From the IMG/VR virus record IMGVR_UViG_2706794696_000014: a stretch of DNA of 47,784 nt; one strand, 5' to 3'. The first letter of the stretch is position 1; the number at the start of each line of letters is the position of its first letter. This DNA is from a virus. Its lineage: Duplodnaviria > Heunggongvirae > Uroviricota > Caudoviricetes. Shown piece after piece: positions 11,859 to 34,476 of the stretch. Below the pieces are notes generated by a model, which did no database searches, was not told the DNA's origin, and saw only the letters and a program-made list of their open reading frames with translations. The position numbers and the translations under genes are program-made.

Positions 11859-11896
11859 TTGCTGGCTCATGGTATGTTAGTTTAAGGAGGCAGGTT

Positions 11897-12919: not shown

Positions 12920-12934
12920 TAGCGCAGGTCATAC

Positions 12935-13936
12935 ATGGATATTCGCACACGAAAGACAAAATTTTTAGAGTCGTTAGATTCAACTGAAGTGATACGCAAA
13001 GCAGTAAGTCTCGCTATAGATTGCATTATTGATAATCATAATAGTAATGAAGATACCCCCTTAGTTATTACCAGCTATGATGATCTCTGTAGAATCCAGG
13101 TGCTAAATTATGTACAGGAGTTTTGCGAAGCTGCATTCCCTGATATGGATGAATATTACTTTAGTCCTAACATACTTCGCATCAACGGCAAGACTAGTGA
13201 AGAAGCTTGTATTAACTTAATTAAACTCTTAAGAAGTACAAAAGGCATGCTATTCTGGTCCGATGCCCCATCGTGGTTCGCTAGCCTCCCCGACGGATTA
13301 TTCCATGTTGTTAACATTGATCAAAAAATCGTTACTCGCGGCCTTAATAAGAAAAACTCTAAGCCGACAATAATCAATAAAGATTACAGTGTAGATACAC
13401 TACTATCAGAGCTATTTTTGAATGGCGCACACATGGAGCAACCCAACGTACACAACGTTTCTGAGGGAAACATGAAGTTCTATGATGAATGCCATGCTGG
13501 ATTAATCAGACCAATACCCGCTCCAATAGGCGCGTCATACGATGAAGAGATCACAATTAATTCTCCAGATTGGCAAAAGCTCGCGTGTGTAGCTTTACGC
13601 CGCTATCAGTCGAAGGAATGTCATGACGGAATGCAATGGGATACAACCGATCATGGTTGGACTGATGTAATCGCGTATCCATTCGTCGAAGAAATACAAT
13701 CAATGGATAATAGTGGTTATCGACAATGTTTAGTTGGGCTGGTCACAATAAACAATTCAAATGCAAATTCTCCGTACCTATCTACCGTTTGGATACATCC
13801 ATTTTATCGCAGGAGAGGGTTATTAAGTAAGTTATGGCCAAAATTACAAGAGTTATATGGAAGTAACTTCGAAATTGAGCGACCTAATGAAAATATGAAA
13901 GCATTTCTGAAAAGTGCGAAACACGCAGATTACTAA
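12935..13936 (+). CDS. Unknown protein, gene 2 of AT-rich accessory operon; C-terminal GNAT-like acetyl-CoA-binding motif (VWIHPFYRRRGLLSKLW)
   Basis: 333-aa ORF starting 15 nt after the gene 1 stop (operonic); AT-rich; the motif resembles GNAT motif A but the domain looks short. Confidence 0.6.
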   Translation: MDIRTRKTKFLESLDSTEVIRKAVSLAIDCIIDNHNSNEDTPLVITSYDDLCRIQVLNYVQEFCEAAFPDMDEYYFSPNILRINGKTSEEACINLIKLLRSTKGMLFWSDAPSWFASLPDGLFHVVNIDQKIVTRGLNKKNSKPTIINKDYSVDTLLSELFLNGAHMEQPNVHNVSEGNMKFYDECHAGLIRPIPAPIGASYDEEITINSPDWQKLACVALRRYQSKECHDGMQWDTTDHGWTDVIAYPFVEEIQSMDNSGYRQCLVGLVTINNSNANSPYLSTVWIHPFYRRRGLLSKLWPKLQELYGSNFEIERPNENMKAFLKSAKHADY

Positions 13937-14556: not shown

Positions 14557-14895
14557 CTATTTTTTGGTGCTATAGACTTTTTCGCCCGAAAAGTCTGGAG
14601 CGACCCAAAAGTTAATATTAAACTGAGCATCATCGCTTAGTTCAACACGGTGCCAGTATTGTGGTGGGCTTGTTGCAAAAGCGCCAGCATTAATGACTAC
14701 TTTTATCTCCGGTTCAGTAGCATTCTCATCAGTAAAACCATAATATGTTACAGTGCCTTCCATTACGCACAACTGCCCAAAAACACCTGCTGCTGTATTA
14801 TGATGTGTTAATAACGCTGAAGGTACGTTCTCTTTTGTGAAGAACGGAGTTGAGCGTTTGATTACCCAATCTTTAGGAATTCTCTTGTGTGTCAT
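14557..14895 (-). CDS. Small conserved protein of unknown function (possibly DUF1971 / TehB-N-like), 112 aa
   Basis: ORF MTHKRIPKDWVIKRSTPFFTKENVPSALLTHHNTAAGVFGQLCVMEGTVTYYGF preceded by a GGAGGAGG Shine-Dalgarno; sits inside the AT-rich accessory segment on the opposite strand; the family assignment is from memory and uncertain. Confidence 0.6.
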   Translation of the reverse strand: MTHKRIPKDWVIKRSTPFFTKENVPSALLTHHNTAAGVFGQLCVMEGTVTYYGFTDENATEPEIKVVINAGAFATSPPQYWHRVELSDDAQFNINFWVAPDFSGEKVYSTKK

Positions 14896-15708
14896 AACCA
14901 CCTCCTCCAAAACATGCATTAAAAATGCATCTTTTGGAGGGTTATGTCAAGCTGTTATGAAACACATAATTGATATGTTGATTAGAGGAGAAGATAGAAT
15001 AAATATGGTTGTTTTTCGTATAACTATTTGTTTTACTTTTAGTTTATGCATTCTGTGTGTTAGGAATAAGTTATTAAAGTTTAATCAAAAAATCTCGATG
15101 TAGTCCACATAGATTACTGTTACTGAACCTTATTGTGTGTATTAGTTGTGTTCTGAAATTTCAGCTTAATTATTTATGATGTATTTTTTAACGATAAATA
15201 TTTTCCCAGGATACCTTTACTGTGTATATAAATAAATTATATACGCATAAATAATGTAAAGGCGTCCTTTTAGATATATCTTATCAAATGTTAATGACTT
15301 GAGTGGGAAATATGATTCCAGCAACTTATCATGTGGCTACTTTATAAAAATAATGCCCATATAAAACAACAAGCGAAAAGGATTACGGATAAAAAAGGAG
15401 CGAGATGTGCGAACTTGTTATTTTCCATGTTTAACCACCTTAAATAATTGATGATGACGGGATGATTGCATCTGTAATGCTTTTATTGAAATGTTATGAT
15501 AAAAAAGAACTTTTGCATAACATTAAAATGTAATTTATCTAATCGTTTTTAATAATAAGTGTCGTATTTCTATCCTTGTACCAGCTATTTGATATGTAGT
15601 GTTTGTTCATGCTATGTGGGGCTTTACACCATAGCCAGTTTATTTATACTTTATTCGTCAGCCTGAACAACTGGCATCTGCTGCGCTGCGCCATCGAGAG
15701 ATTGAGAA

Positions 15709-18181: not shown

Positions 18182-18610
18182 ATGGGTTTTCGTAGCGCAT
18201 CAATTCTTACGTTGATTATTAGTGGGATTATTATCGGGTGCACTGATGCTGTATCGACAAATTATCATGACCGTACATCATATTACTCCGATAAAGCAAT
18301 AGAGACACAGTATGTGAGTTCATCTGAACGTACTTCTGATGTTAGTGAGGATATCCGTCTGTATGCCCATCAAATCAAGAGCGCCATCGAAAAACAGTTC
18401 GGGGATGCGAGTAAGTATTCAGGAAAAGAGTGTACACTGAGAATGCATATGGCCCCGAATGGCCTTCTACTGGAGGTTAAAAGAGAAAGTGGAGACCTCG
18501 ATTTATGTCGTGAAGCGATGAATGCGATAAAGAATGCTGATATACCTGCCCCCCCTTCGCCGGAAGTATATAAAGTATTTCAAAATGGGGTGCTGGATTT
18601 TAAACCCTGA
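18182..18610 (+). CDS. Lipoprotein with a C-terminal TolA domain III-like region (moron), 142 aa
   Basis: Signal peptide plus lipobox (LIISGIIIGC); C-terminal YAHQIKSAIEKQFGDASKYSGKECTLRMHMAPNGLLLEVKRESGDLDLCREAMNAIKNADIPAPPSPEVYKVFQNGVLDFKP closely resembles the C-terminus of E. coli TolA as I remember it. Confidence 0.7.
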   Translation: MGFRSASILTLIISGIIIGCTDAVSTNYHDRTSYYSDKAIETQYVSSSERTSDVSEDIRLYAHQIKSAIEKQFGDASKYSGKECTLRMHMAPNGLLLEVKRESGDLDLCREAMNAIKNADIPAPPSPEVYKVFQNGVLDFKP

Positions 18611-18760: not shown

Positions 18761-19156
18761 GTGGGATTAAAGAAAATCGTTATGTTGACTTTTTGGGTCG
18801 GTTTTGTTGCGGGATGCACACCTTTACACCCTTCAGATTGCCACAAAACTACTGCTACAGGTAGTTGCAGTTCAGGACGCTGGGATGATCAGGATGAATG
18901 GGGGGCGCAAGCGCGGGGAATCAGAGCTGCAATTAATGCCAAACTTGATGAGCCGCATAACTGGAAAGGGAAAAAATGCAGGTTGCATATGGAATTCTCT
19001 CAGGATGGCACGGCGTTAAAAATATCTACCAGTAACGGTGATAAAGCCTATTGCGAAGCGATAAAGTCCGCAGCTCATAAAGCCAAATTTCCGGCCTTCA
19101 ACAATCCGGAAGTCTACAGAGATTTTCAGAAATCTGGCTTTGACATGCGAGGTTAG
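18761..19156 (+). CDS. Second, diverged paralogous lipoprotein with TolA-III-like C-terminus, 131 aa (GTG start)
   Basis: Lipobox VAGC; GAGGAG Shine-Dalgarno; shares the motifs I..AI..K...GKKC.LHM..S.DG..L.I....GD...C.A...A...AKFPA...PEVY..FQ with the upstream gene. Confidence 0.65.
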   Translation: MGLKKIVMLTFWVGFVAGCTPLHPSDCHKTTATGSCSSGRWDDQDEWGAQARGIRAAINAKLDEPHNWKGKKCRLHMEFSQDGTALKISTSNGDKAYCEAIKSAAHKAKFPAFNNPEVYRDFQKSGFDMRG

Positions 19157-20718: not shown

Positions 20719-22176
20719 ATGAATACATCTCATGTAAGAGTTGTTACTCATATGTGTGGGTTCCTGGTTTGGCTCTATAGTCTTTCAATGTTGCCACCAA
20801 TGGTTGTAGCATTGTTTTATAAAGAAAAAAGCCTGTTCGTTTTCTTTATAACTTTCGTTATATTTTTTTGCATTGGTGGCGGAGCGTGGTATACAACTAA
20901 GAAATCTGGCATTCAATTACGTACCCGTGATGGGTTTATTATAATTGTAATGTTTTGGATTTTGTTTTCTGTTATTAGTGCATTCCCTTTATGGATTGAC
21001 TCAGAACTTAATTTAACGTTCATTGATGCTCTGTTTGAAGGGGTTTCTGGAATAACAACAACAGGAGCAACTGTAATTGATGATGTTAGTTCATTACCTC
21101 GGGCATATTTGTACTATCGGTCACAGTTAAATTTTATAGGTGGTTTAGGAGTTATTGTTCTGGCGGTTGCAGTATTGCCATTATTGGGTATTGGTGGTGC
21201 AAAGCTTTATCAGTCAGAAATGCCGGGGCCATTTAAGGATGACAAACTCACTCCCCGCCTGGCCGATACGTCACGGACACTGTGGATAACTTATTCTTTA
21301 TTAGGTATTGCTTGTATTGTCTGTTATAGACTTGCAGGAATGCCTTTGTTTGATGCTATTTGTCACGGGATTTCCACAGTTTCGCTTGGTGGTTTCTCAA
21401 CTCATAGCGAGAGTATCGGATATTTTAATAACTATTTGGTTGAGCTGGTGGCTGGTTCTTTTTCCCTGCTATCGGCTTTCAACTTCACTCTTTGGTATAT
21501 TGTTATTAGCAGAAAAACGATAAAACCTTTAATCAGAGATATTGAACTTCGTTTCTTTCTGTTAATAGCCTTAGGGGTGATCATTGTTACCTCTTTCCAG
21601 GTCTGGCATATAGGTATGTATGACTTGCATGGAAGTTTTATTCATTCGTTTTTTCTTGCCAGCTCCATGCTCACTGATAATGGTTTAGCTACGCAGGATT
21701 ATGCAAACTGGCCCACGCACACGATAGTGTTTTTGCTGTTGTCAAGTTTCTTTGGGGGATGTATAGGTTCAACCTGTGGTGGAATTAAGTCACTTCGATT
21801 TCTTATACTTTTCAAACAAAGCAAACACGAGATAAATCAGCTTTCTCATCCCAGAGCGTTGTTGAGTGTAAATGTAGGAGGGAAGATAGTTACAGATCGT
21901 GTAATGAGGTCTGTATGGAGTTTCTTTTTTCTTTATACTCTCTTCACGGTGTTTTTTATACTGGTGTTAAATGGTATGGGATATGATTTTCTTACATCAT
22001 TTGCAACAGTGGCTGCATGTATTAATAATATGGGATTAGGTTTTGGGGCTACTGCATCGTCATTCGGAGTGCTTAATGACATTGCAAAATATTTAATGTG
22101 CATAGCTATGATTCTTGGTCGCCTTGAAATTTATCCTGTTATTATATTGTTTTCAGGTTTTTTTTGGCGCTCCTAA
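20719..22176 (+). CDS. trkG: Trk-system potassium uptake protein TrkG (TrkH/TrkG family), 485 aa
   Basis: Polytopic membrane protein starting MNTSHVRVVTHMCGFLVWLYSLSMLPPMVVALFYKEK; AT-rich codon usage; sits right after the lysis cassette as in Rac. Confidence 0.85.
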   Translation: MNTSHVRVVTHMCGFLVWLYSLSMLPPMVVALFYKEKSLFVFFITFVIFFCIGGGAWYTTKKSGIQLRTRDGFIIIVMFWILFSVISAFPLWIDSELNLTFIDALFEGVSGITTTGATVIDDVSSLPRAYLYYRSQLNFIGGLGVIVLAVAVLPLLGIGGAKLYQSEMPGPFKDDKLTPRLADTSRTLWITYSLLGIACIVCYRLAGMPLFDAICHGISTVSLGGFSTHSESIGYFNNYLVELVAGSFSLLSAFNFTLWYIVISRKTIKPLIRDIELRFFLLIALGVIIVTSFQVWHIGMYDLHGSFIHSFFLASSMLTDNGLATQDYANWPTHTIVFLLLSSFFGGCIGSTCGGIKSLRFLILFKQSKHEINQLSHPRALLSVNVGGKIVTDRVMRSVWSFFFLYTLFTVFFILVLNGMGYDFLTSFATVAACINNMGLGFGATASSFGVLNDIAKYLMCIAMILGRLEIYPVIILFSGFFWRS

Positions 22177-22313
22177 TATATGGCTGATTTATAATTGTGA
22201 GTTTAATATTATGTTGACTCACTCATTGATCCAATACCTAACTTTACCAGCAACACCTCCGCCCCCAGTAGCACTGGCTGCTGGGGTGCGTTTTATTCAT
22301 AAAGCAAGGCTGT

Positions 22314-23102
22314 ATGAGCGAGAAATTAAAGATAGTCTATCGCCCATTACAAGAATTGTCACCGTATGCGCACAACGCCAGGACGCACAGTACTGAGCAG
22401 GTGGCACAACTGGTAGAAAGTATTAAGCAATTCGGCTGGACTAATCCGGTGCTGATTGACGAAAAGGGCGAAATTATTGCGGGTCACGGTCGTGTTATGG
22501 CGGCTGAAATGCTCAAAATGGATTCTGTTCCGGTCATTGTTCTGTCTGGCCTGACGGATGAGCAGAAAAAGGCGTACCGCCTGGCAGATAATCGCCTGCC
22601 GATGAATGCTGGCTGGGATGAAGATCTGTTGCGGATGGAGCTGTCGGACCTAATCAATGCTGATTTTGATGTCTCCCTGACAGGCTTCATCCCGGCAGAA
22701 ATTGATGAACTGTTGACGGATGTTTTGCCCGGTACAGGAAATGAGGAGGAGCCGTATACGACGAAAATTGATACGCCTGTTTATGAGCCGTCAGGCGGTA
22801 AACCGGATATCAGTGAACTGTACGACGATACGAAAACTCAGGAGCTGATCAGCCGGATACGTTCGGCGTCCCTTGATCCTGATATTGAGAAATTCCTCCT
22901 GTGTGCAGCAGAACGTCACACGGTGTTTAATTTCAGCAGAATTGCGGACTATTACGCTCATGCCCCCGCTGAAATTCAGTGCCTTTTCGAGGAGTCGGCG
23001 CTGGTGATCATTGATTATCAGCAGGCTATTGAAAATGGATTTGTCCGAATGACGCAGCGCATGGTGGAGATCATGCATGGCGGGGAGGAGGAATATGCGT
23101 GA
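22314..23102 (+). CDS. ynaK: ParB-like nuclease domain protein (ParB/sulfiredoxin fold), 262 aa; probably the full-length form of ynaK
   Basis: N-terminal ParB-box-like region (VYRPLQELSPYAHNARTHSTEQVAQLVESIKQFGWTNPVLIDEKGEIIAGHGRVMAA); located upstream of the terminase genes. Confidence 0.65.
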   Translation: MSEKLKIVYRPLQELSPYAHNARTHSTEQVAQLVESIKQFGWTNPVLIDEKGEIIAGHGRVMAAEMLKMDSVPVIVLSGLTDEQKKAYRLADNRLPMNAGWDEDLLRMELSDLINADFDVSLTGFIPAEIDELLTDVLPGTGNEEEPYTTKIDTPVYEPSGGKPDISELYDDTKTQELISRIRSASLDPDIEKFLLCAAERHTVFNFSRIADYYAHAPAEIQCLFEESALVIIDYQQAIENGFVRMTQRMVEIMHGGEEEYA

Positions 23103-24027
23103 TGATTTTTGCGCCTTTATTCTGACTCACGGGCGACCGGACAAAGTTCTGACTTACCGGACGTTGCGTCGTGCTGGCTATACCGGGAAAATTTTTATCG
23201 TTGTTGATGATGAAGATAAGACACGGCATCAGTACATGGCTGAATTTGGTGAACAGGTGCTGGTATTTTCCAAAGCCGATATTGCTAGTCGTTTTGACGA
23301 AGCCGATAATTTTAGTGACCGCCGCTCAATTTTTTACGCCCGTAATGCCTGTTTCGACCAGGCAAAACTGGTCGGGTGTAAATACTTCATTCAGCTCGAT
23401 GATGATTATCACGAGTTCCAGTTTCGGGTGGATCGCAACTATGACCAGGCCTATTTCCCGATAAGGAAACTGGATGAGATCCTTTCTGAAATGCTTGCGT
23501 ACTACGAATCAATACCTGCTCTTTCCATCGCTATGTCGCAGGGCGGGGATTTTCTTGGTGACAATGGCGGCCATGCTTCGTGGGTGAAACGCAAGGCAAT
23601 GAACAGCTTTATCTGTTCGGTTGATCGACCGTTCTCATTCATGGGGCGCATTAACGAGGATGTGAATACGTACACGAATCTCGGTCGCTGTGGTGAATTG
23701 TTTATGACGATCGGTGCTGTCCAGTTAGGGCAGAAACAGACGCAGAAAAACAGCGGCGGAATGACCGAGCTGTATCTGGATTCCGGAACCTACGTTAAAA
23801 GTTTTTACTCCGTCATGTATGCGCCGTCGTGCGTAAAAATCTCACTTATGGGTGCCAGTCATAAACGCATTCACCATCAGGTCACCTGGAACAACGCTGC
23901 AGTAAAAATCCTTCACGAAAAATACAGGAAGAAGACACCCTGCATATCAATGGGGGTGACAAATGATTCCGTATTCGAAAGTCGAGTCTCTGGCAGCGTG
24001 CCGGATGACTGCACAACAAATCGCTGA
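23095..24027 (+). CDS. Hypothetical protein, 310 aa, translationally coupled to the ParB-like gene; function unknown
   Basis: ATG at 23095 after GGAGGAGG, overlapping the ParB-like stop by 8 nt; contains an acidic DDDY stretch; no family recognised. Confidence 0.55.
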   Translation: MRDDFCAFILTHGRPDKVLTYRTLRRAGYTGKIFIVVDDEDKTRHQYMAEFGEQVLVFSKADIASRFDEADNFSDRRSIFYARNACFDQAKLVGCKYFIQLDDDYHEFQFRVDRNYDQAYFPIRKLDEILSEMLAYYESIPALSIAMSQGGDFLGDNGGHASWVKRKAMNSFICSVDRPFSFMGRINEDVNTYTNLGRCGELFMTIGAVQLGQKQTQKNSGGMTELYLDSGTYVKSFYSVMYAPSCVKISLMGASHKRIHHQVTWNNAAVKILHEKYRKKTPCISMGVTNDSVFESRVSGSVPDDCTTNR

Positions 24028-24214
24028 CGTTCTGGATGTTGATCTGAACCGACTGAAAGAAAATCGGGAAGCAATGACAGATTTTTATGCGGCCATCCGT
24101 AAGGGCAGAGCGAAAGGTGAAGCCGAGTTACGAGCGGCATTGTTTAAGCTTGCCAGAAAAGGGGATGCCTTTGCTCTGCGCGAACTACTCAGGGTGGATA
24201 AAAATCAGGACTAA
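23963..24214 (+). CDS. Small protein upstream of the terminase small subunit (possible DNA-binding / packaging accessory), 83 aa
   Basis: 83-aa ORF ending 4 nt before the small-terminase start; basic, helical; overlaps the 3' end of the previous gene. Confidence 0.4.
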   Translation: MIPYSKVESLAACRMTAQQIADVLDVDLNRLKENREAMTDFYAAIRKGRAKGEAELRAALFKLARKGDAFALRELLRVDKNQD

Positions 24215-24217
24215 CTG

Positions 24218-25312
24218 ATGAGCAGACCGGACTGGGGGGCGTTGCAGCAGGAGTATATTGCTGAATACACCCGCTCCGGTATATCTCCGGTGGCATGGTG
24301 TGAAGCAAGGGGACTGAATTACGCAACAGCCCGTCGTTACATCAAAAAAACTCCGAAAAATGCGCAGACAGAAATGTGCAAAACTGCGCAAAAAAGTGCG
24401 CAGAAAAAATCTGCGCAGACTGCACAAAAGCGGAACGAAAAATCTCAGGAAAAAAAGCCAGTATTCGATGCGGGCCTGAATGAGGGCGACGCGGAGGAAT
24501 TTTCGTTCTGTCCCGATGAATTCGGCATTTCTGACCAGCAGGCTAAGTTTGCGATGCTTGTTGCTCAGGGTAAAAAGCCGACAGAGGCGTACCGACTAGC
24601 CGGTTATGAGGGGCAAGGTGCGACAGCTAACAGCAACGCCAGTCGTATGCTTAGAAATGCCAGGGTTTTTCGCGCTATCAGCTACTTCCGCAATCAGTAC
24701 CAGAAACGCTATACCGCAGACCTGGATTTACTAGTGAGTCAGTTGATGGCTATTGTCCTGGCCGACCCCAATCAGCTTGCACAATTTCGCCGTGTTAACT
24801 GCCGTTATTGCTGGGGCGAGAATCATCTCTACCAGTGGCGCGATATAGCAGAATTCGACAAGGCAGCGGCGCAGGCTTCCAGAGATGGCAAACCCGAACC
24901 GGAATATGGAGGCCTCGGCTTTGTTGATAACGCCATACCCAATCCGGACTGCCCGAAGTGCTGCGGTGAGGGAACGGGACAGCTTTATATGGCTGATACC
25001 ACTCTGCTTGATGGGGATGCGCGGCAATTATATGCAGGGGCAAAATTCGGAAAATTCGGCGTTGAGATCCTGCTGGAGGATAAGGCTGCCGCCCGGCGTG
25101 AATTGTTGCGTTTGTTTTCTGCTGGCGGGGCTTTATGTGCAGATAAGCGGCTACGGGAACTGGAAATTGAACGGCGCAGAATGGAAAACCAGAAGCTGCG
25201 CAAAGAGATCGAAACGGTGGAAGATAATGAACATCCCCAGCCTGTGGCGATCAATATTAATGTGGTTGATGCCAGAGTAAGGAGTGATGAAGATGATCTC
25301 TCCGACGCTTAA
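24218..25312 (+). CDS. Terminase small subunit, 364 aa
   Basis: Immediately upstream of and overlapping the large terminase; N-terminal HTH-like region and basic repeats (KTAQKSAQKKSAQTAQK). Confidence 0.7.
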   Translation: MSRPDWGALQQEYIAEYTRSGISPVAWCEARGLNYATARRYIKKTPKNAQTEMCKTAQKSAQKKSAQTAQKRNEKSQEKKPVFDAGLNEGDAEEFSFCPDEFGISDQQAKFAMLVAQGKKPTEAYRLAGYEGQGATANSNASRMLRNARVFRAISYFRNQYQKRYTADLDLLVSQLMAIVLADPNQLAQFRRVNCRYCWGENHLYQWRDIAEFDKAAAQASRDGKPEPEYGGLGFVDNAIPNPDCPKCCGEGTGQLYMADTTLLDGDARQLYAGAKFGKFGVEILLEDKAAARRELLRLFSAGGALCADKRLRELEIERRRMENQKLRKEIETVEDNEHPQPVAININVVDARVRSDEDDLSDA

Positions 25313-26594
25313 TGTGCCTCAGGCGCGATTTCTTTCAATGCCCCATAAATTTAAAGCCTATATTGCTGGTTTTGGCTCGGGCAAAACATGGGTTGGGTGT
25401 GGCGGCATATGCAAGGGGATTTGGGAGCATCCAGGTATAAATCAGGGATATTTTGCGCCAACGTATCCCCAAATTCGCGATATTTTTTACCCTACAGTGG
25501 AAGAAGTTGCTGCTGACTGGGGATTGAACGTAAAAATTAATGAGGGAAATAAAGAGGTTCACTTTTATTACGGACGCCAGTATCGGGGAACCACTATCTG
25601 CAGATCGATGGAGAAGCCACAAACGATCGTCGGTTTCAAAATTGGTAATGCGTTGGTGGATGAACTGGACATTTTGCCGAAGGAAAAAGCCAGAACGGCG
25701 TGGCGCAAGATAATTGCACGTATGCGTTATAAGATTGATGGACTTCGCAACGGTATTGACGTTACAACCACGCCGGAAGGATTCAAATTTGTCTACGAGC
25801 AGTTTGTTAAAGCCGTGCGTGAAAAAACAGAGCTGGCCTCACTGTATGGTCTGGTGCAGGCATCTACTTTCGATAATGAAAAGAACCTGCCAGCAGATTA
25901 CATTCCTTCGCTTCTTGAATCATACCCTCCAGAGCTGATTAAAGCCTATCTTCGAGGACAGTTTACTAACCTGACAAGTGGTACTGTTTACCATCAGTTT
26001 GACCGGAAACTGAATAATTGCGAAGAAGTGGAGCAGCCAGGGGAGCCGATTTATATTGGGATGGATTTTAACGTTGGAAAGATGGCGGGAATCGTCCATG
26101 TGCTGCGTTTGGGGCTTCCATGTGCGGTAACTGAAATCATCAATGCCTACGATACGCCGGATATGATCCGCATCATTAAAGAACGCTTCTGGCTGTATGA
26201 TGGGAATGATTACCGGAAAGTGAGGGAAATTTATATTTATCCAGATGCTTCCGGGGATTCCAGAAAATCAAGTAACGCAAGTACGACGGATATAGCCCAG
26301 CTTAAGCAGGCTGGTTTTAACGTTGTGGTGAACAGCTCGAACCCGCCAGTAAAAGATCGCGTTAACTCAATGAATGCAATGTTCTGCAATGCCAATGGTG
26401 AGCGTCGCTATAAAGTTAATGTGAAGCGTTGCCCGTTATATGCCGAATCTCTGGAGCAACAGGTCTGGGATGAGAAGGGGGAGCCTGATAAAAAATCTGG
26501 CAATGATCACCCGAATGATGCCGGAGGTTATTTCATCGTTAAGCAATTCCCTATTGTCAAACCGACCGGAAGAGTCACATCACTTCGGATTTAA
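25287..26594 (+). CDS. Terminase large subunit (ATPase/nuclease), about 435 aa
   Basis: Walker A-like motif YIAGFGSGKTW near the N-terminus and acidic nuclease-type residues in the C-terminal part; TAAGGAG Shine-Dalgarno; followed by the portal gene. Confidence 0.85.
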   Translation: MKMISPTLNVPQARFLSMPHKFKAYIAGFGSGKTWVGCGGICKGIWEHPGINQGYFAPTYPQIRDIFYPTVEEVAADWGLNVKINEGNKEVHFYYGRQYRGTTICRSMEKPQTIVGFKIGNALVDELDILPKEKARTAWRKIIARMRYKIDGLRNGIDVTTTPEGFKFVYEQFVKAVREKTELASLYGLVQASTFDNEKNLPADYIPSLLESYPPELIKAYLRGQFTNLTSGTVYHQFDRKLNNCEEVEQPGEPIYIGMDFNVGKMAGIVHVLRLGLPCAVTEIINAYDTPDMIRIIKERFWLYDGNDYRKVREIYIYPDASGDSRKSSNASTTDIAQLKQAGFNVVVNSSNPPVKDRVNSMNAMFCNANGERRYKVNVKRCPLYAESLEQQVWDEKGEPDKKSGNDHPNDAGGYFIVKQFPIVKPTGRVTSLRI

Positions 26595-26596
26595 TT

Positions 26597-28003
26597 ATGG
26601 CTGATATATCAACACCCAACCTCGACTATAACGATATGCTGGAGGCGTGGGATATTAACGACGCACTGATGGGCGGTACGCTTGAAATGCGCAGGCAGGG
26701 GGAAAATTATCTCCCAAAATGGCCTAACGAAGATGAAGACGCTTATAAAAAACGCCTGTCTGTGGCTACGCTACTTCCTGTGTATGAAGAAAGCATCAAG
26801 CAAAATATTGGGCGCATATTTGCAGAGCCGACAGTATTGAGTGAGGAAACGCCGGCAAAAATCAGGGAATATGCAGAAAATATCGACATGGAGGGGAGCC
26901 GACTGGATGTGTGGGCGCAGCAATTTTTCAGCCTCGCATTTCAGTATGGTGTGGCACATGCGCTGGTGGACTATCCACGAACGGATATGAAAGAGATTCG
27001 GACAAAAGCCGATGAAAACGCGACCGGTGGTCGTCCGTACGTTACGATGCTGAATCCACGCCAGGTTATTGGATGGAAATCGAAAGTTGAAAAAGGGAAA
27101 GTTGTTCTCACTGATTTGCGTATAAAAGAGGTCATCATTATTGATGGTGATGATTTCGGGCAGAAGAAGGTGGAGCAGATCCGCCATATTATGCCCCGTC
27201 GAGTTGAAATTTATCGACGTAGCGAAGGCACTAATGGCGAATCTGTCTGGACGCTTCATGAGTCATGGAATACCAGCCGTGATGATATTCCTCTGGTAAC
27301 ACTGTACACGAAGAAAACAGGATTTATGCGTGGTACACCGCCATTGCTTAATCTTGGCTTGCTGAATATCAAGCACTGGCAAAGCCAGAGCGAGCAGGAC
27401 AATATTCTTCATGTTGCCCGCGTTCCATTGCTGGTGGCCTACGGGCTGGACAGGAATGAAGAACTGACGGTTGGTGCATCCACCGCTACGATTTTTGAGG
27501 ACAGAACAAAAAATGGCCTCGAATATGTTGAACATAGTGGCGCAGCGATAGAATCTGGCGAAACATCACTTGAGAAGCTGGAAAATCAGATGCGTCATGC
27601 CGGCGCTAAACTTCTGCGTGCTGAAAATACATCCACCAAATCTGTTGATCAGACTAATGAAGAGCGAATGCAGGAAAACTCGCCGCTTTATACAATGGCG
27701 AACTCCCTCGAAGATGCCCTCGATAATATTCTCCAGATAATGGCGGAATGGATCGGAGAGAGTTGCGGTGGCAATGTGGATGTGCGCACTGAACTGGATG
27801 TATCTGCCCAGGTGTTTGACTCATCCTCCGCGCTGGCTGTTCAGTCATTGCGTCAGGGCGGTGATATACGTCAGATTGATGCGGTTCGGGTGTTGCAGGC
27901 GTTGAAATTTATCGATCAGGATTCCCGTCCAGAGGAAGTGATCGATGAATTAAAAAATCAGAGTGTAATGCTGATGGAAATCAATGATGCAAACCGTGAA
28001 TGA
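26597..28003 (+). CDS. Portal protein, 468 aa
   Basis: Large ORF between the large terminase and the head morphogenesis gene; size and position typical of a portal. Confidence 0.8.
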   Translation: MADISTPNLDYNDMLEAWDINDALMGGTLEMRRQGENYLPKWPNEDEDAYKKRLSVATLLPVYEESIKQNIGRIFAEPTVLSEETPAKIREYAENIDMEGSRLDVWAQQFFSLAFQYGVAHALVDYPRTDMKEIRTKADENATGGRPYVTMLNPRQVIGWKSKVEKGKVVLTDLRIKEVIIIDGDDFGQKKVEQIRHIMPRRVEIYRRSEGTNGESVWTLHESWNTSRDDIPLVTLYTKKTGFMRGTPPLLNLGLLNIKHWQSQSEQDNILHVARVPLLVAYGLDRNEELTVGASTATIFEDRTKNGLEYVEHSGAAIESGETSLEKLENQMRHAGAKLLRAENTSTKSVDQTNEERMQENSPLYTMANSLEDALDNILQIMAEWIGESCGGNVDVRTELDVSAQVFDSSSALAVQSLRQGGDIRQIDAVRVLQALKFIDQDSRPEEVIDELKNQSVMLMEINDANRE

Positions 28004-29099
28004 ACGGCTGCGTGATGAATCAATTGCTCATGCAGTCTGGATATCCCGCTATAGCACTGGCGTGGCTGCCAGAATGGTGAAAATACTGAATGACAGCGAT
28101 GCGGAACTTACTGCTCGCCTGCTGATAGCACTGGACAGCCTCGATCCAGGTAGTTTTACCGTTAAGCGCCTGGAGTCACTTCTGGCGAGCGTCAGAGAGG
28201 TTAACCGCACTGCTATTAACAGCATGTTTACCAGTCTCTCCGGAGAGCTGAACGAGCTGGCAATTTATGAGGCTGGTTATCAGTTAAGTCTGTTTGATTC
28301 TATGCTACCTGATTTTGTTGCTGATGTTCACCCTCTGGTTGGTATCTCTCCTGATGCACTTTATGCCGCTGCAATGGCGCGACCATTCCAGGGACGACTG
28401 CTCAGTGAGTGGGCCTCAGATCTTGAGGCGGATCGGCTCAGACGCATAACAAATACAGTGCGTCAGGGTTTTTTGCTGGGGGATACCAATGAGCAGATCG
28501 CAAGAAAAATTCGGGGACATGTCAGTAAGGGATTTCAGGATGGTGCATTGCAGATGAGCCGGGCTAATGCGGCCAGCATTGCAAAAACAGCGGTTGGACA
28601 TCTTGCTGCTACTGCCCGTGAGAGTTTTGCCAGCGCGAATAATGATTTGATTAAGGGTAAGCAATGGTTATCAACGCTTGATAATCGTACTACGCCACAA
28701 TGTCGAATCAGGGATCGCCTCAAATATACGCTGAATAATAAACCTGTAGGTCACAGCGTGCCTTATTTGCAGGGGCCGGGAAAAATTCATTTCTGCTGCC
28801 GCTCAACGGAAACGTTCATTCTGAAATCAGCGAAGGAACTGGGTATTGATGTTCGCGATATTTCCCCGGCTGAGCGGGCCAGCATGGATGGCGTGGTGGC
28901 CGGAGATACAACCTACAGGGAATGGTTTTTGCGTCAGCCTTACACCAGACAAAAACAGATTGTGGGGGAAAGCCGAGCAAAGCTGATTCGGGATGGTGGT
29001 ATGTCGCCAGATGAATTTTACACCGATAAAGGCGAATGGCTGACGCTGAAGCAGCTCCGTGAGCGTGATGCACAGGTATTCAGAAAAGCAGGGATTTAA
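27984..29099 (+). CDS. Head morphogenesis protein (Mu gpF / SPP1 gp7-like minor head protein), 371 aa
   Basis: Follows and overlaps the portal gene; assigned by position and size. Confidence 0.7.
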   Translation: MMQTVNERLRDESIAHAVWISRYSTGVAARMVKILNDSDAELTARLLIALDSLDPGSFTVKRLESLLASVREVNRTAINSMFTSLSGELNELAIYEAGYQLSLFDSMLPDFVADVHPLVGISPDALYAAAMARPFQGRLLSEWASDLEADRLRRITNTVRQGFLLGDTNEQIARKIRGHVSKGFQDGALQMSRANAASIAKTAVGHLAATARESFASANNDLIKGKQWLSTLDNRTTPQCRIRDRLKYTLNNKPVGHSVPYLQGPGKIHFCCRSTETFILKSAKELGIDVRDISPAERASMDGVVAGDTTYREWFLRQPYTRQKQIVGESRAKLIRDGGMSPDEFYTDKGEWLTLKQLRERDAQVFRKAGI

Positions 29100-29117
29100 A
29101 TAAATCATTTATTACAA

Positions 29118-29145
29118 CAGGCTACCTTCGGGTGGCCTTTTTTAT
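29118..29145 (+). terminator. Rho-independent terminator with UUCG tetraloop
   Basis: GGCTACC-ttcg-GGTGGCC followed by TTTTTT. Confidence 0.6.
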
Positions 29146-29203
29146 TGCTGCGATCCGGATGGTGAGCAGCGTAACTGTCGGAAGACTTAAACCAGGTACT
29201 AAT

Positions 29204-29968
29204 ATGAAACTGAAAACGGTCGAGATTAACGGAAAACAATACGCAGAAATTGATACTGCTGGCCTGCCAGTTTATGTGCACGACGATGGTAAAGAAATTG
29301 GCTTCGATGCACCGCTGGCGACAAAAAAAATTACAGAGCTTAATGGCGAGGCAAAAAATCATCGCCTGGCTAAAGAAGCTGCAGAGGAAAAACTGGCTAA
29401 GTTTGCCGCTATCGAAGACCCGAAGAAGGCGATCGAGGCACTGGAAATGCTGTCAAAAATCGACCAGAAAAAGCTGCTCGATGCGGGACAGGTTGACCAG
29501 GTTAAGGCAGAAATTACGAAAAATTTTCAGCAGCAATTAGATGAAGAAAAGCAACGCTCTCAGATGCTGGAGAAGCAGCTTTACGATTCTATGATTGGCG
29601 GTAGTTTTGCGGGTTCAAAATATATTGCCGATAAAATTGCGATCCCGGCAGATTTATTACAAGCCCGCTTCGGGCAGGCATTCAAAGTGGAAGAAGGGAG
29701 GATCGTTGCTTATGACGCTTCCGGCAACAAAATTTATTCCCGCGCGAAGCCTGGCGAACTGGCGCAGTTTGATGAGGCGCTGGAGTTCCTTGTCGAAAAT
29801 TACCCTCAGAAAGACTACATCCTGAAAGCCAGTGGCAACAATGGCGGCGGCTCCCGTCCGACACAGCATGATATTGGTCAGAAAACGATGAAACGCTCTG
29901 CTTTTGATGCACTGGATGTTGCAGGTAAGCAAAACGCATTGAAAGACGGTATCACAATCGTTGATTAA
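29204..29968 (+). CDS. Head scaffolding protein, about 254 aa
   Basis: Helical, charged, coiled-coil-like protein directly upstream of the major capsid gene. Confidence 0.65.
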   Translation: MKLKTVEINGKQYAEIDTAGLPVYVHDDGKEIGFDAPLATKKITELNGEAKNHRLAKEAAEEKLAKFAAIEDPKKAIEALEMLSKIDQKKLLDAGQVDQVKAEITKNFQQQLDEEKQRSQMLEKQLYDSMIGGSFAGSKYIADKIAIPADLLQARFGQAFKVEEGRIVAYDASGNKIYSRAKPGELAQFDEALEFLVENYPQKDYILKASGNNGGGSRPTQHDIGQKTMKRSAFDALDVAGKQNALKDGITIVD

Positions 29969-30066
29969 CACATTTGTCAGCTTCCGGATGGGAGCTGGTG
30001 TCAGGGCTGGATAGCTCATTACTCCATCTATTCACAATTACGCAAATTTTTAAGGAATATTTAATT

Positions 30067-31206
30067 ATGGCTGGAAATACCCTGACCGGGTTGATCCCGA
30101 CTATTTATACCGCCCTGGATGTTGTATCCCGTGAGCAGGTAGGTTTTATCCCTGCGGTAGCAAAAAACGCAAAAGCTGACGCCGCAGCAAAAGATCAGAC
30201 GGTAACCGCGCCAGTTGCGCCTGAGGCGAAAACCGAAGATATCGTACCGGGGCCGTCAGCTCCGAATACCGGTGATCAAAATATTGGCACTGTTGATGTA
30301 AAAATTACTAAATCCAAAATGGCACCGGTTAAATGGAATGGTGAAGAACAACTGGCTCTTGGCCCTTCAGGGACTTACAACACCATTCTGGCTGATCAGT
30401 TCAAGCAGGCTTTTCGCGCCCTTGCAAACGAGGTTGAGGCTGATCTTGGTGCGTTGTATTTCGGTGCTTCCCGCGCCGTGGGAACCGCAGGGACAACGCC
30501 GTTTGGTGTTAAAGATGATCTTTCTGATGCTGCTCTGGCTCGTCAGGTTCTGGAGGATAACGGCGCACCGACAACCGATCTGCAGATGGTGCTTGGCTCC
30601 ACTGCCATTGCTAATTTGCGCGGAAAACAGTCTGTATTGTTTAAAGTGAATGAATCCGGCACTGAACAGCTACTGCGTGAGGGCGTGTTGGGGCGTCTGG
30701 AGGGATTCAATATTCACAGTTCGGCAGGTGTGAAACGAGCGCCAAAGGTTGCTGCAACTGGTTATCTCGTGAATGGAGAGAAAAAAGAAGGCGATGTTCT
30801 TATTTCCATTGATACTGGTTCGGGGAGTATTTCTGCAGGTCAGATTGTTACGTTCGCTGGTGATCCGAATCAGTATGTTGTGGCAGCAGCGACCAGCAAT
30901 CTGATTACTCTTGCAGCGCCCGGACTGCGTCAGGATCTGGCCGATGATACTGCCATCACAGTTGTTGGGGCCTTTACTGCAAATATGGCGTTTGATCGCA
31001 ACGCGTTTCTGCTGGCATCCCGTACTCCGGCAATGCCGGAAGGTGGCGATAATGCTGATGATGTAATGAATGTTACGGACCCGATTTCAGGGATTACGTT
31101 CCAGATTGCACTGTATCGTCAGTATCGCCAGGTGCGCTATGAAGTTGGACTGGCATGGGGTGTTTCATCAGTGAAGCCGGCACATGGTTGTCTGATTCTT
31201 GGTTAA
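30067..31206 (+). CDS. Major capsid protein, 379 aa
   Basis: ATG after an AAGGA Shine-Dalgarno; follows the scaffold gene; followed by a strong terminator, as is typical for a capsid gene. Confidence 0.8.
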   Translation: MAGNTLTGLIPTIYTALDVVSREQVGFIPAVAKNAKADAAAKDQTVTAPVAPEAKTEDIVPGPSAPNTGDQNIGTVDVKITKSKMAPVKWNGEEQLALGPSGTYNTILADQFKQAFRALANEVEADLGALYFGASRAVGTAGTTPFGVKDDLSDAALARQVLEDNGAPTTDLQMVLGSTAIANLRGKQSVLFKVNESGTEQLLREGVLGRLEGFNIHSSAGVKRAPKVAATGYLVNGEKKEGDVLISIDTGSGSISAGQIVTFAGDPNQYVVAAATSNLITLAAPGLRQDLADDTAITVVGAFTANMAFDRNAFLLASRTPAMPEGGDNADDVMNVTDPISGITFQIALYRQYRQVRYEVGLAWGVSSVKPAHGCLILG

Positions 31207-31214
31207 ACATTCAA

Positions 31215-31238
31215 ACGGGGCTTCGGCCCCATTTTTAA
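31215..31238 (+). terminator. Rho-independent terminator after the major capsid gene (UUCG tetraloop)
   Basis: GGGGC-ttcg-GCCCC followed by ATTTTT. Confidence 0.65.
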
Positions 31239-31248
31239 TGGGGGGCAT

Positions 31249-31425
31249 ATGGCCGGATTAACTAAAGAGCAAAGAGCACAGCGTGAAGCCGCACAAAAAA
31301 CGCAAATTGAGTTAGTGGTTATGGTGACCGATTATCAGATGTTTCCCGGCGCACCAACTATCGCTAATGTTCATCCTGATGAAGTTGACAACTGGAAGGC
31401 TATGGGCTGGAAAACTCAGGAGTAA
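31249..31425 (+). CDS. Small hypothetical head-region protein, 58 aa
   Basis: Manually translated ORF MAGLTKEQRAQREAAQKTQIELVVMVTDYQMFPGAPTIANVHPDEVDNWKAMGWKTQE between capsid and connector genes; below the ORF-track cut-off. Confidence 0.45.
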   Translation: MAGLTKEQRAQREAAQKTQIELVVMVTDYQMFPGAPTIANVHPDEVDNWKAMGWKTQE

Positions 31426-31428
31426 CAC

Positions 31429-31824
31429 ATGATCACTTACGTGACCTGTGATGACGTTGATAATGCGTTTGGGAACGCCTGGACGAGTGAGAACGCTAAA
31501 AATAAAGCTGTTTTAATGGCTAATGCCTGGCTTAATGGCTTCAACCTGAAAATTAACCCATCCCGTATTCCGGAAGAGGTAAAACTTGCGGGAGCATATG
31601 CAGCCAGAATTGCCTCATTCGGTAAGTTGTTTCAGCAGAAAAATGATTCTGGCGTTGTTATCAGTAAAGCCGTGTCGGCTGACGGGGTCAGTGTATCGAA
31701 ATCATTTTCTGAGTTGCCAGCAAACAGCACTGCATTGCTTGAACCCGATTTACAGCTTGCGATAGCACTGCTGAAACCGTACGGACTTAGTCGCTCACAA
31801 GTCAGGGTTGTGAGGGGGGGATAA
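31429..31824 (+). CDS. Head-tail connector / head completion protein (putative), 131 aa
   Basis: Member of a string of four about 130-aa overlapping ORFs between capsid and major tail genes; AGGAG Shine-Dalgarno. Confidence 0.6.
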   Translation: MITYVTCDDVDNAFGNAWTSENAKNKAVLMANAWLNGFNLKINPSRIPEEVKLAGAYAARIASFGKLFQQKNDSGVVISKAVSADGVSVSKSFSELPANSTALLEPDLQLAIALLKPYGLSRSQVRVVRGG

Positions 31825-32207
31825 TGGGGCTTCGTGAAGAGATTCAGTCAGAGGTTGCCGCTGCTTTTGATGAGGATTTAGCGGACGCCGTGAGTGATTT
31901 TTCTGGTTCTTACGTTACGCACCGGCACTGGGATCCTGTGACGGAAACTGGCGGCGAATCAACCGCAATCTATACCGGGCGAGGCGTGTTGACACGTTAT
32001 AAGCTGGGCAGAATTGATGGGATTAATATTTTGCATGGTGACCTTAAATTAACCGCTCTGGTATGCGAGGTTACGGATAAACCAGCTGTCGACCATATTA
32101 TTGAGATTTATGATCCTGTATCAAGGCAGTTACAACGATACGAGGTAATTACAGCAAGTGTAGATCCTTCCGCATCAGTTTACTCTATCCAGTTAAGGAG
32201 AGCGTAA
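31824..32207 (+). CDS. Head-tail adaptor / head closure protein (putative), 127 aa
   Basis: Start overlaps the upstream stop (TAATG); position in the head-tail joining module. Confidence 0.6.
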   Translation: MGLREEIQSEVAAAFDEDLADAVSDFSGSYVTHRHWDPVTETGGESTAIYTGRGVLTRYKLGRIDGINILHGDLKLTALVCEVTDKPAVDHIIEIYDPVSRQLQRYEVITASVDPSASVYSIQLRRA

Positions 32208-32588
32208 ATGGCAAAGGCATGGGATATAGAACCGTCAATATTTGCCGGGATGATTGAGGAAGATGTAGGGCTGAAGATTCGCTACATCGCTATGCAGATT
32301 CTTACTGCTATTGATATTGCTGCTCCGGTTGATACCGGACGTTTCAGAAATAACAACCTGGTGTCGTTACAGCATCCCGATTTTGGTATATCTGATAACG
32401 TGGATCCGAACGGTACGATTGCTGTTCAGCGTGGGATCGGGGTTATTTCGAAAGCTGCAAATTACGGGGTTATTTATATCCAGAATAACCTTCCTTATGC
32501 AGAGGCTCTTGAAAACGGTCATTCACAACAAGCGCCAACTGGCGTGTATGCCAACGCTTTTCATGGTGTTTTACAGGCTTACAAATGA
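32208..32588 (+). CDS. Tail completion protein (HK97 gp10-like, putative), 126 aa
   Basis: Position in the head-tail joining module, immediately after the previous gene. Confidence 0.6.
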   Translation: MAKAWDIEPSIFAGMIEEDVGLKIRYIAMQILTAIDIAAPVDTGRFRNNNLVSLQHPDFGISDNVDPNGTIAVQRGIGVISKAANYGVIYIQNNLPYAEALENGHSQQAPTGVYANAFHGVLQAYK

Positions 32589-32977
32589 AGTTTACTGAAA
32601 TCAGAAATACGGTTATTTCCAGAATGACGGCACAGACGATTATTGATGGAAAAGACGTATTGTATCCGAACGGGCCAACGTTCGATCCTTCCGGTAAGTT
32701 AATCTGGGCGCGGTTAAGTAATATTCCCGGGCAGGCTGGAGTTAATGAAATTGGCGCGGGGCCGGTTGTTTATCGCACGGGGATAATCATTATTCAGTTA
32801 TTTGTCCCCGCAGGTTCTGGTTCAAAACTCATTACTGAGACAGCCGATAAATTGCGGGAACTGTTTGAGTTTCAGGATGACGATCGTCTCAGTTACCAGG
32901 CTGTTTCCTCAATAGCCGTTGGCGAAAAGAATGGCTGGTTCCAGCTTAATCTTCAAATTCCATATCGCGCGCTCTAG
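32585..32977 (+). CDS. Tail terminator protein (putative), 130 aa
   Basis: Start overlaps the previous stop (ATGA); immediately upstream of the major tail protein gene. Confidence 0.6.
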   Translation: MKFTEIRNTVISRMTAQTIIDGKDVLYPNGPTFDPSGKLIWARLSNIPGQAGVNEIGAGPVVYRTGIIIIQLFVPAGSGSKLITETADKLRELFEFQDDDRLSYQAVSSIAVGEKNGWFQLNLQIPYRAL

Positions 32978-33003
32978 CGCAATTAATGACATAGGAGGCT
33001 CCT

Positions 33004-33966: not shown

Positions 33967-34014
33967 TTTTCCGTTATTCCTCCTGTGGTACTGCCCTACA
34001 GGGGGACGCATTGA

Positions 34015-34476
34015 ATGAGGTTATGGATGTTTATTCTTAATCAGAAAATTATCATTGGTGGAGAACGCTGGTTTACGCCAATGAAGGACTTAAAACCTGT
34101 AGACGGGTTAAAACTGTTGGTGGCAAGCAGCGATAACGATCAGTATCGCTCCCGTAATGCATTAATCCGTCGCCACATTGAGAAAATGGATGCCAGTTTG
34201 CACGTCGGAACGAAGGAGTTTGATATTTCAAAGGTTTCCGAGGTGGATTCTGTTGATGATTTACTCATTGATAATGCCGCTCGTTATCTGCTGAAAGACT
34301 GGAAAGGGGTTGGTGAACTGGTTAATGGTGTTGAGGTTGCACTGGAATATACGGCAGAACGAGGGATCGCGCTGCTTAAGCAGAATCCAGAGTTGTACTG
34401 GCAGATCCTTGCAGAAGCAGCCAGCATCGCCCAGGGTAAAGAGCAGCAGAAGCAGGATACGATAAAAAAGCCATAG
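34015..34476 (+). CDS. Tail assembly chaperone (lambda G-like), 153 aa
   Basis: ORF before the tape measure gene; its 3' end contains a -1 slippery heptamer leading into an overlapping downstream frame. Confidence 0.75.
   Translation: MRLWMFILNQKIIIGGERWFTPMKDLKPVDGLKLLVASSDNDQYRSRNALIRRHIEKMDASLHVGTKEFDISKVSEVDSVDDLLIDNAARYLLKDWKGVGELVNGVEVALEYTAERGIALLKQNPELYWQILAEAASIAQGKEQQKQDTIKKP

Follow-up and report, generated by a model that had tools for sequence, protein, structure and literature searches.

A conserved glycosyltransferase and ParB-fold gene pair upstream of the terminase in a Rac-like prophage of Escherichia coli, a candidate DNA glycosylation module

What does a pair of overlapping genes directly upstream of the terminase do for a lambdoid phage? 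We addressed this question in IMG/VR record IMGVR_UViG_2706794696_000014, a stretch of 47,784 nucleotides (nt) analyzed over its whole length (the window), which holds nearly an entire Rac-like lambdoid prophage of Escherichia coli. The first gene, open reading frame (ORF) A (22314..23102, plus strand, ATG start, 262 amino acids [aa]), is the full-length form of ynaK and encodes a two-domain partner protein. The second, ORF B (23095..24027, plus strand, 310 aa), encodes a protein with the GT-A glycosyltransferase fold. The answer that we favor, tentatively and with somewhat less than even confidence, is that the two form a late-expressed DNA glycosylation module in which the ParB-type partner assists the enzyme and which protects the packaged DNA. 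A preliminary description made from the sequence letters had reported an intact pair with an 8-nt overlap 5' of the terminase, and the coordinates bear this out: the ORF A stop codon (TGA) lies at 23100-23102, the overlap with ORF B is ATGCGTGA, and the genes for TerS and TerL follow. The strong Shine-Dalgarno sequence that it assigned to the 310-aa gene is also present, as a GGAGG-rich stretch, GGGGAGGAGG, at 23082..23091 (plus strand) within the 3' end of ORF A. The longest frame of ORF B starts at 23077 (316 aa), and we place the start at the ATG at 23095 (310 aa) because all homologues begin MRDDF... and because GGGGAGGAGG precedes this codon. Translation of ORF B is probably coupled to that of ORF A.

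The preliminary description considered the 310-aa protein to be of unknown family, which no longer holds. ORF B matched Pfam PF20691 (TET-associated glycosyltransferase [TAGT]) over residues 8 to 222 (E = 3.7e-34; 118.9 bits versus a cutoff of 27.5) and phrog_842 (E = 7.5e-104). PF20691 was preassigned to all ORF B homologues, and the RefSeq name is either "GREB1-related protein" or hypothetical. ORF B was modeled with the GT-A fold, and among viral structures it comes closest to other TAGT proteins. No match to a standard packaging or structural family, the outcome that the preliminary description had set against its own proposal, was seen. The acidic DDDY stretch that it pointed out is there (residues 102 to 105; 23398-23409) and is now read differently, as it contains the conserved GT-A DxD motif, D102-D103-D104 (23398..23406, plus strand), which serves metal and nucleotide-sugar binding. 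Together with R14 and E188-D189, these residues form the R...DDD...ED signature of phage GT-A DNA glycosyltransferases (bioRxiv 10.1101/2023.12.21.572611). Across 85 sequences (39 to 80% identity), each signature residue is either invariant or conserved in at least 95%, and the same level of conservation (≥95%) applies to D41, D68, D71, N72, R83, N84, D152, R166, K167, N187, D189, and H260-261. From sequence and model, ORF B is predicted to be a glycosyltransferase with intact catalytic motifs, and it may transfer a sugar to a modified base in DNA. The earlier idea that this protein could be the modifying component in a DNA modification or antidefense role is in part sustained, in that a modifying role fits membership in the TET-associated glycosyltransferases.

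With 1323 clusters at 50% identity (E ≤ 1e-3), the family of the glycosyltransferase is a large one. Long ORF B homologues are fused to an S-adenosylmethionine (SAM)-methyltransferase, a sulfotransferase, or a second TAGT domain. In seven loci (L135, L124, L140; L125, L157, L120, L133), a third gene stands between the glycosyltransferase and TerS. This optional gene codes for a Polysacc_synt_2 dehydratase of the CapD/PseB kind (E = 1e-100) or for a protein resembling a cytidylyltransferase, a hint that some of the phages rely on dedicated sugar donors. Both the fusions and the inserted sugar genes are consistent with real glycan chemistry. PADLOC gave no match for ORF B. Nor did we find close kinship with the beta-glucosyl-HMC-alpha-glucosyltransferase of phages T2 and T6: a tblastn search of 50,697 phage records at an E value of 0.01 returned no Tequatrovirus match, and the nearest T4-like match was in Aeromonas phage 65 (22% identity; E = 6e-5). 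As the clade is so remote from the T2/T6 enzyme, the label "beta-glucosyl-HMC-alpha-glucosyltransferase" that PHROG and RefSeq give to relatives is unsupported and is an overannotation. ORF B falls instead among the "solitary" TAGT proteins, whose function has been called undefined and whose homologues occur in 288 of 753 glycosyltransferase-encoding phage genomes (PMC13216743). Similarly, about 65% of glycosyltransferase contigs lack a neighboring base-modifying enzyme (bioRxiv 10.1101/2023.12.21.572611).

If ORF B is the enzyme, what is ORF A? Its N-terminal domain (residues 1 to 135; 22314..22718, plus strand) has the ParB/Srx nucleoside triphosphate (NTP)-binding fold. ORF A matched Pfam ParB_N (PF02195; E = 8.7e-7; 29.3 bits versus a cutoff of 26.3) and phrog_620 (E = 1.7e-90). 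In an AlphaFold2 (AF2) model, residues 1 to 135 had a per-residue confidence (pLDDT) of about 70 to 90, and Foldseek placed this domain closest to ParB-CDP (6sdk), MxParB-CTPgS (7bnr), Noc, PadC, and KorB (E of about 1e-6 to 3e-6), with Srx also among the closest structures. The boxes of the fold can be recognized as N21 (box I), G57-H-G-R60 (box II), and D92-N93 (box III). A PDB profile alignment pairs GHGR with GERR of box II and ADN with ..EN of box III. Among 66 relatives of ORF A, G57 is conserved in 100%, R60 in 92%, N93 in 93%, and N21 in at least 92%. The N-domain therefore carries the features of a ParB-type NTP-binding fold by profile, motif, and model, and nucleotide binding itself is predicted. 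It belongs to a subfamily shared with ParB-DNA methylase fusions (phrog_498; E = 6e-51), and its match to PADLOC MTase_II (E = 1.5e-38; model positions 13 to 151) involves only the ParB part of that methylase model.

The preliminary description had called ORF A a ParB-like nuclease. ParB-like "nuclease" is a historical name. ORF A matched no nuclease family, neither a nuclease active site nor a nuclease partner was found, and the N-domain instead retains the NTP-binding boxes and resembles CTP- or CDP-bound ParB, Noc, and KorB. We also rejected ORF A as a canonical ParB of a ParABS system. Pfam shows ParB_N only, without the helix-turn-helix (HTH) domain that binds parS; TIGR00180 scored 38.1 bits against a cutoff of 58.45 and covered only residues 11 to 94; and none of the window ORFs scanned gave a ParA-like match.

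The C-terminal domain of ORF A (residues 148 to 245; 22755..23048, plus strand) is conserved and unannotated. It is made up of a YTxKIxxPxYEP peptide and, after it, a small helical domain, and it has no Pfam, NCBIfam, or PDB sequence match; a PDB-sequence profile search returned armadillo-repeat matches only, which we judged spurious. The C-terminal domain is more conserved than the N-domain, with Y148, Y157, R201, A211, Y214, E226, I232, and D234 invariant in 75 to 78 sequences. It also exists as a stand-alone gene (~135 aa) directly 5' of the glycosyltransferase gene in 7 viral and about 9 cellular loci. One of the viral cases is the 191-kb Vibrio phage pv27 (L163, 6459-7888), in which a gene of 139 aa for this domain alone precedes the glycosyltransferase gene among primase, helicase, exonuclease, single-stranded DNA-binding protein (SSB), and clamp genes, away from the terminase. 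When pairwise distances were compared with those of the glycosyltransferase, the correlation was highest for the C-terminal domain (r = 0.70), ahead of the N-domain (0.45) and TerL (0.38); since the pairs lack independence, these values are supportive rather than decisive. Because of the stand-alone occurrence, the higher conservation, and the tighter distance correlation, we consider the C-terminal domain plus the glycosyltransferase to be the core of the module. The constant partner is the C-terminal domain, to which a ParB fold is added in most cases (about 75% of loci). A permuted arrangement was seen in a Gemmatales metagenome-assembled genome (L236, 38-1694), where the gene for the C-terminal domain is followed by the glycosyltransferase gene and then by a separate ParB-N gene. 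As for direct fusions, a glycosyltransferase-ParB fusion that could serve as evidence of a link was not present among the long homologues, and the sole "fusion" of the C-terminal domain with a TAGT domain (P0081, one contig) is probably a merged gene call.

Is the pairing peculiar to this prophage? An ORF A homologue lies immediately 5' of, and overlaps, the glycosyltransferase gene in all 84 close viral loci. The partner is also next to the glycosyltransferase in 74 of 79 diverse viral loci (about 40 to 46% identity), the five exceptions each having less than 500 nt of upstream sequence. As the overlapping pair recurs in both sets, it goes beyond chance. In cellular genomes (69 loci in all), the partner was adjacent in 63 of the 66 loci that could be evaluated. 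These loci span more than 12 phyla, including Proteobacteria, Bacillota, Bacteroidota, Actinobacteria, Verrucomicrobia, Acidobacteriota, and Planctomycetes, with further lineages in Spirochaetia, Chlorobi, Cloacimonadota, candidate-phyla-radiation lineages, and a Methanosphaera genome bin. Cultured viruses with the module are Lactobacillus phages c5 and phi jlb1, Nocardia phage NTR1, and haloarchaeal virus HHTV-2. The module usually lies 5' of the terminase, whether this is of the GpA, the Terminase_4/TerL_ATPase, or the Terminase_6 type. In phage c5 it directly follows cos as the first gene pair, and in NTR1 it directly abuts TerL with no TerS between them; in many relatives a small TerS-like ORF lies 3' of the glycosyltransferase gene. 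In one locus (L130), a fusion of ParB_N with an N6_N4 methylase stands directly 5' of the pair.

Both genes are under strong purifying selection. The ratio of nonsynonymous to synonymous substitution rates (dN/dS) against locus L055 was 0.09 for ORF A and 0.07 for ORF B; finite ratios were obtained only for L055 (both genes) and L069 (ORF A), as synonymous sites were saturated in most comparisons. At greater distances, synonymous sites are saturated while dN stays at 0.13 to 0.29. Of 5426 complete E. coli genomes, 867 (about 16%) carry the pair intact and others carry part of it; 16 of the matching places in E. coli are on plasmids. Another plasmid, the 50-kb pCBA3643-01 of Virgibacillus sp. 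CBA3643 (L168), also carries the module and is possibly a phage-plasmid. The glycosyltransferase gene is intact in phages c5 and PMBT4, whereas it is split or partial in other virulent dairy phages, namely, L. delbrueckii phages phiLdb, Ld17, LL-Ku, and Ld25A (NC_022762, NC_025420, NC_022989, and NC_025415). The split genes look like recurrent decay of the module.

When would the pair be expressed? A terminator-like hairpin (22263..22286, plus strand; 10-bp stem with 7 G-C pairs and a T-rich tail) follows the trkG insert and ends 28 nt 5' of ORF A, and no sigma-70-like promoter was found on the plus strand between trkG and ORF A. Because of the trkG hairpin and because no promoter-like site precedes ORF A, the pair is probably expressed in the late operon through Q read-through. 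Downstream, the end of ORF B overlaps an 83-aa ORF (23963..24214, plus strand) that encodes a TerS-like HTH protein (phrog_309; E = 8e-23). This overlap is unusually long (65 nt; 23963-24027). The E. coli ORF B also carries a 22-aa C-terminal extension compared to homologues of about 288 aa, and loss of a stop codon is a possible origin of the extension. TerS (24218-25312) and TerL (25284-26594), both on the plus strand and matching Pfam Terminase_2 and Terminase_6N/6C, lie outside the module and provide its context.

With the DNA glycosylation reading, the pair would act on the replicated DNA of the phage itself, either while it is being packaged or just beforehand. ORF B would be the catalyst, a GT-A enzyme using a nucleotide sugar. 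In E. coli, this donor probably comes from the host pool, since the prophage adds no sugar-synthesis gene. ORF A would be the obligate partner, its C-terminal domain binding, completing, or activating ORF B and its ParB/Srx N-domain acting as an NTP-binding switch that brings the enzyme to double-stranded DNA or holds it there. Packaged DNA might then be shielded from restriction or other DNA-targeting defenses in the next host. An antidefense benefit fits the fact that the module is accessory and often lost. What we infer is that expression is late and depends on Q read-through, that the two proteins form a complex, that DNA is the acceptor, and that the benefit is one of antidefense. As for the acceptor, characterized members and relatives of PF20691 glycosylate DNA bases (the T2/T6 enzyme that makes gentiobiosyl-hydroxymethylcytosine [hmC], the 5mYOX-associated GT-A enzymes, and JGT-like enzymes).

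Known systems provide parallels for such a pair. The closest is 5mYOX176/ParB176 (O'Toole et al., PNAS 2026; PMC13229309), from a subclass of phage thymine dioxygenases that need a cognate ParB-like protein on double-stranded DNA. There, too, a DNA-modifying enzyme sits beside a short ParB-like protein, often near the terminase, and the partner has an NTP-binding N-domain and a C-terminal domain with no recognizable HTH, as in ORF A. The partner of 5mYOX176 is required for activity on double-stranded DNA, and the pairing is cognate specific. The present system differs in that the enzyme is a glycosyltransferase with no dioxygenase and in that the C-terminal domain of ORF A falls into no known family and is found as a gene of its own as well. 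ParB_N-DNA methyltransferase fusions (phrog_498; PADLOC MTase_II; N6_N4_Mtase, MT-A70), which are enriched in prophages (bioRxiv 10.1101/2025.10.10.680097), use the same N-domain subfamily as ORF A and share the logic of a ParB fold attached to a postreplicative DNA modifier. Unlike in these fusions, ORF B is a separate protein linked via the C-terminal domain, and it would transfer a sugar rather than a methyl group. In 7-deazaguanine insertion, the base modifier DpdA is inactive without the neighboring ParB-fold ATPase DpdB, and a stable complex is not needed (PMC10164549). DpdB differs in its ParB subfamily (DGQQR motif), in that the reaction is base exchange, and in belonging to cellular restriction-modification rather than a phage late operon. 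On the enzyme side, ORF B shares the Pfam model, the GT-A fold, and the R...DDD...ED signature with the TAGT family (the T2/T6 enzyme and 5mYOX- or ThyS-associated GT-A enzymes), which is structurally akin to the trypanosome base-J glucosyltransferase. Unlike in T2/T6, no hmC or hydroxymethyluracil (hmU) pathway or alpha/beta-glucosyltransferase (GT) is found near ORF B.

Several observations weigh against DNA as the acceptor, the foremost being that the enzyme that would make the acceptor seems to be missing. Canonical E. coli and lambdoid DNA is not known to carry a hydroxymethyl acceptor. All characterized DNA glycosyltransferases of the ORF B kind need a preinstalled hydroxyl and act on 5-hydroxymethylcytosine (5hmC), 5-hydroxymethyluracil (5hmU), or a sugar that is already there. 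In Pfam searches of about 45 window ORFs, we found no TET/JBP protein, thymidylate synthase-like hydroxymethylase, DNA methylase, or TGT-like enzyme; alpha/beta-GT, dCMP hydroxymethylase, and the hmC/hmU pathway were likewise absent from the window ORFs scanned. The association with TET/JBP or a hydroxymethyl-pyrimidine pathway for which the TAGT proteins are named is thus not seen at this prophage. The complete 31.8-kb genome of phage c5 gave no dioxygenase match in ORF25, 41, 44, and 45, its only hypothetical ORFs with room for a dioxygenase, and no hydroxymethylase was found within the ~63 kb inspected of the 191-kb pv27 genome. The only frequent neighbor families in the 79 diverse loci were TerL, small TerS-like proteins, and portal. 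In a Pfam scan of 131 neighbor-cluster representatives (84 families), no dioxygenase family was matched by two or more representatives, and the 25 of those 84 families that were listed did not include Tet_JBP, which leaves room for a rare singleton. Nor is there an adjacent cognate 5mYOX gene; the neighbor of the ORF A-type gene is the glycosyltransferase in all loci examined. The literature searched held no report of sugar-modified DNA in lambdoid phages and nothing useful on DNA modification in HHTV-2 or the Lactobacillus phages.

The proteins themselves also give grounds for caution. Neither ORF A nor ORF B has a recognizable DNA-binding domain. The ParB N-domain is missing from about a quarter of loci, so DNA clamping is not essential to catalysis. 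The AF2 model of the ORF A C-terminal domain is of low confidence, as is the C-terminal third of the ORF B model. Because of the absent acceptor, the lack of a DNA-binding domain, and the quarter of loci without a ParB fold, we keep our belief in the DNA glycosylation module a little short of even.

One way around the missing acceptor is that the clade of the C-terminal domain plus glycosyltransferase is self-sufficient and tags DNA with sugar without a preinstalled hydroxymethyl group. We consider this unlikely, if worth stating. The enzyme could glycosylate a canonical base or the backbone directly, or an activation or base-presentation step could come from the C-terminal domain, in which Tyr, Arg, His, Glu, and Asp residues are invariant. 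If true, either route would be a new chemical class of DNA modification, and the class would extend over tailed viruses whose hosts include archaea and over a dozen phyla of bacteria, and it would occur in ~16% of complete E. coli genomes.

Could the acceptor be a protein? The sugar might go to ORF A itself or to a packaging or virion protein from the late operon. In the self-glycosylation variant, the target would be Y148-T-x-K-I-x-x-P-x-Y157-E-P of ORF A, an invariant Tyr/Thr-rich peptide, by glycogenin-like self-priming. The Y148-Y157 peptide lies in a disordered linker next to the enzyme. A precedent outside phages adds to the case against DNA: the animal TAGT protein GREB1, whose shared TAGT domain is the origin of the RefSeq name "GREB1-related protein" for ORF B, glycosylates a protein and not DNA (PMC7968844). 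GREB1 differs from ORF B in being a large eukaryotic protein that O-GlcNAcylates ER-alpha (PMC7968844) and in having no ParB partner. Taking the protein acceptor and its self-glycosylation variant together, we regard this alternative as improbable, with perhaps one chance in a handful of being right.

A less likely alternative again, and one we doubt, is that ORF B is a conventional glycosyltransferase for hydroxymethyl-pyrimidines or glycosyl-hmC whose substrate is supplied in trans, either by a superinfecting or coresident phage with 5hmC or 5hmU DNA or by a host dioxygenase encoded elsewhere. The pair would then serve in interphage conflict or be the leftover of a former three-gene pathway. 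This would agree with the PF20691 membership and the association with TET/JBP that gives the family its name, and 5mYOX neighborhoods are described as often holding glycosyltransferases, ParB, and terminases. Prophage glycosyltransferases that hypermodify invading genomes have also been raised as a possibility (bioRxiv 10.1101/2023.12.21.572611). Against this stands the absence of a recurrent dioxygenase from about 150 diverse loci and from small complete virulent genomes such as c5. Strong purifying selection speaks against a relic, the hairpin and the lack of an upstream promoter favor late lytic over lysogenic expression, and the clade is very distant from the T2/T6 enzyme (tblastn; none at E = 0.01).

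We think it very unlikely that the module is one for packaging or genome handling, in which the ParB-like protein would mark or organize DNA near cos or pac with the glycosyltransferase as an accessory or regulator. The position directly 5' of TerS/TerL is constant over three terminase types, the c5 pair comprises the first two genes after cos, the NTR1 pair abuts TerL without TerS, and it has been speculated in the literature that ParB directs modification machinery during packaging. On the other hand, the module is often lost or split while the phage is kept, and ORF A lacks an HTH or parS-binding domain (Pfam ParB_N only; TIGR00180 below cutoff). The strict conservation of the catalytic motifs of the glycosyltransferase further argues that enzymatic activity is what is selected. 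Modification of the cell envelope (seroconversion of lipopolysaccharide [LPS] or O antigen, or superinfection exclusion) is hardly credible: ORF B does share the generic GT-A fold with TarP and LPS glycosyltransferases, but its gene lies in the late operon away from int/att and is coupled to a ParB-fold protein, and virulent phages and an archaeal virus carry the module too.

How does the locus relate to Rac in E. coli K-12? K-12 Rac (L166) matches the window at 22136-22567 and then resumes at 34125, which reveals a clean 11.56-kb deletion (window 22568-34124) that joins codon 85 of ORF A to the tail-assembly region. The deletion removes ORF B along with the terminase, portal, and head genes. 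K-12 ynaK (87 aa) is the first 85 codons of ORF A, and the junction also creates ydaY. The preliminary description had the neighborhood reduced to short remnants in K-12, which is correct for ORF A; the 310-aa gene has left no remnant there. We considered ydaY as a remnant of ORF B and rejected it, as it maps to window 34125 onward in the tail region. Many E. coli homologues are similar chimeras, e.g., fused to Ail/Lom or to terminase fragments.

The rest of the window is that of a lambdoid prophage. It starts with the integrase gene (1-1236), followed by RecT, exonuclease VIII, the replication and nin regions, Q, lysis, and trkG, and the remainder of the prophage after trkG holds head and tail genes, Lom, and the side tail fiber. 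The replication genes are separated from the nin region by a two-gene insert (11828-13936); its first gene (363 aa) has a weak match to HEPN_RES_NTD1 (E = 2e-4) and the second (333 aa) a weak match to GNAT (E = 9e-4). Neither had a PADLOC or NCBIfam match, and the two may be an uncharacterized moron or defense pair. An ORF with a DUF1971 (TehB-like) domain on the minus strand of the nin-region gap (14557-14919) is probably another moron. Two small ORFs 5' of the lysis cassette (18182-18610 and 18761-19156) carry a TolA C-terminal domain (E = 2e-23 and 1e-14) and could mimic TolA, e.g., to block Tol-dependent phages or colicins.

The protein families discussed here were already known, and the co-occurrence of glycosyltransferase and ParB-like genes near terminases has been mentioned in passing in the literature. 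In the literature searched, we did not find the obligate pairing of a TAGT clade via an unannotated domain and without a dioxygenase, or a biochemical test of it, and a survey of ParB folds makes no mention of glycosyltransferases (bioRxiv 10.1101/2025.10.10.680097). What would be new is ParB-assisted postreplicative DNA modification with a glycosyltransferase and no hydroxylase. With this locus, one of the solitary TAGT proteins is found in a lambdoid E. coli prophage that is amenable to genetics, and the TAGT here is not truly solitary, having an obligate, coevolving partner domain that is unannotated in databases and usually fused to the ParB NTP-binding fold that phages also join to DNA methylases. 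The ynaK gene of K-12 can now be read as the 85-codon stump of this module. If DNA is modified, either phage DNA glycosylation follows a broader substrate rule than is known or the principle of a ParB activator reaches glycosyltransferases; if a protein is modified, both the name of the family and its present annotations are misleading. In both cases, the PHROG and RefSeq label on relatives is without support.

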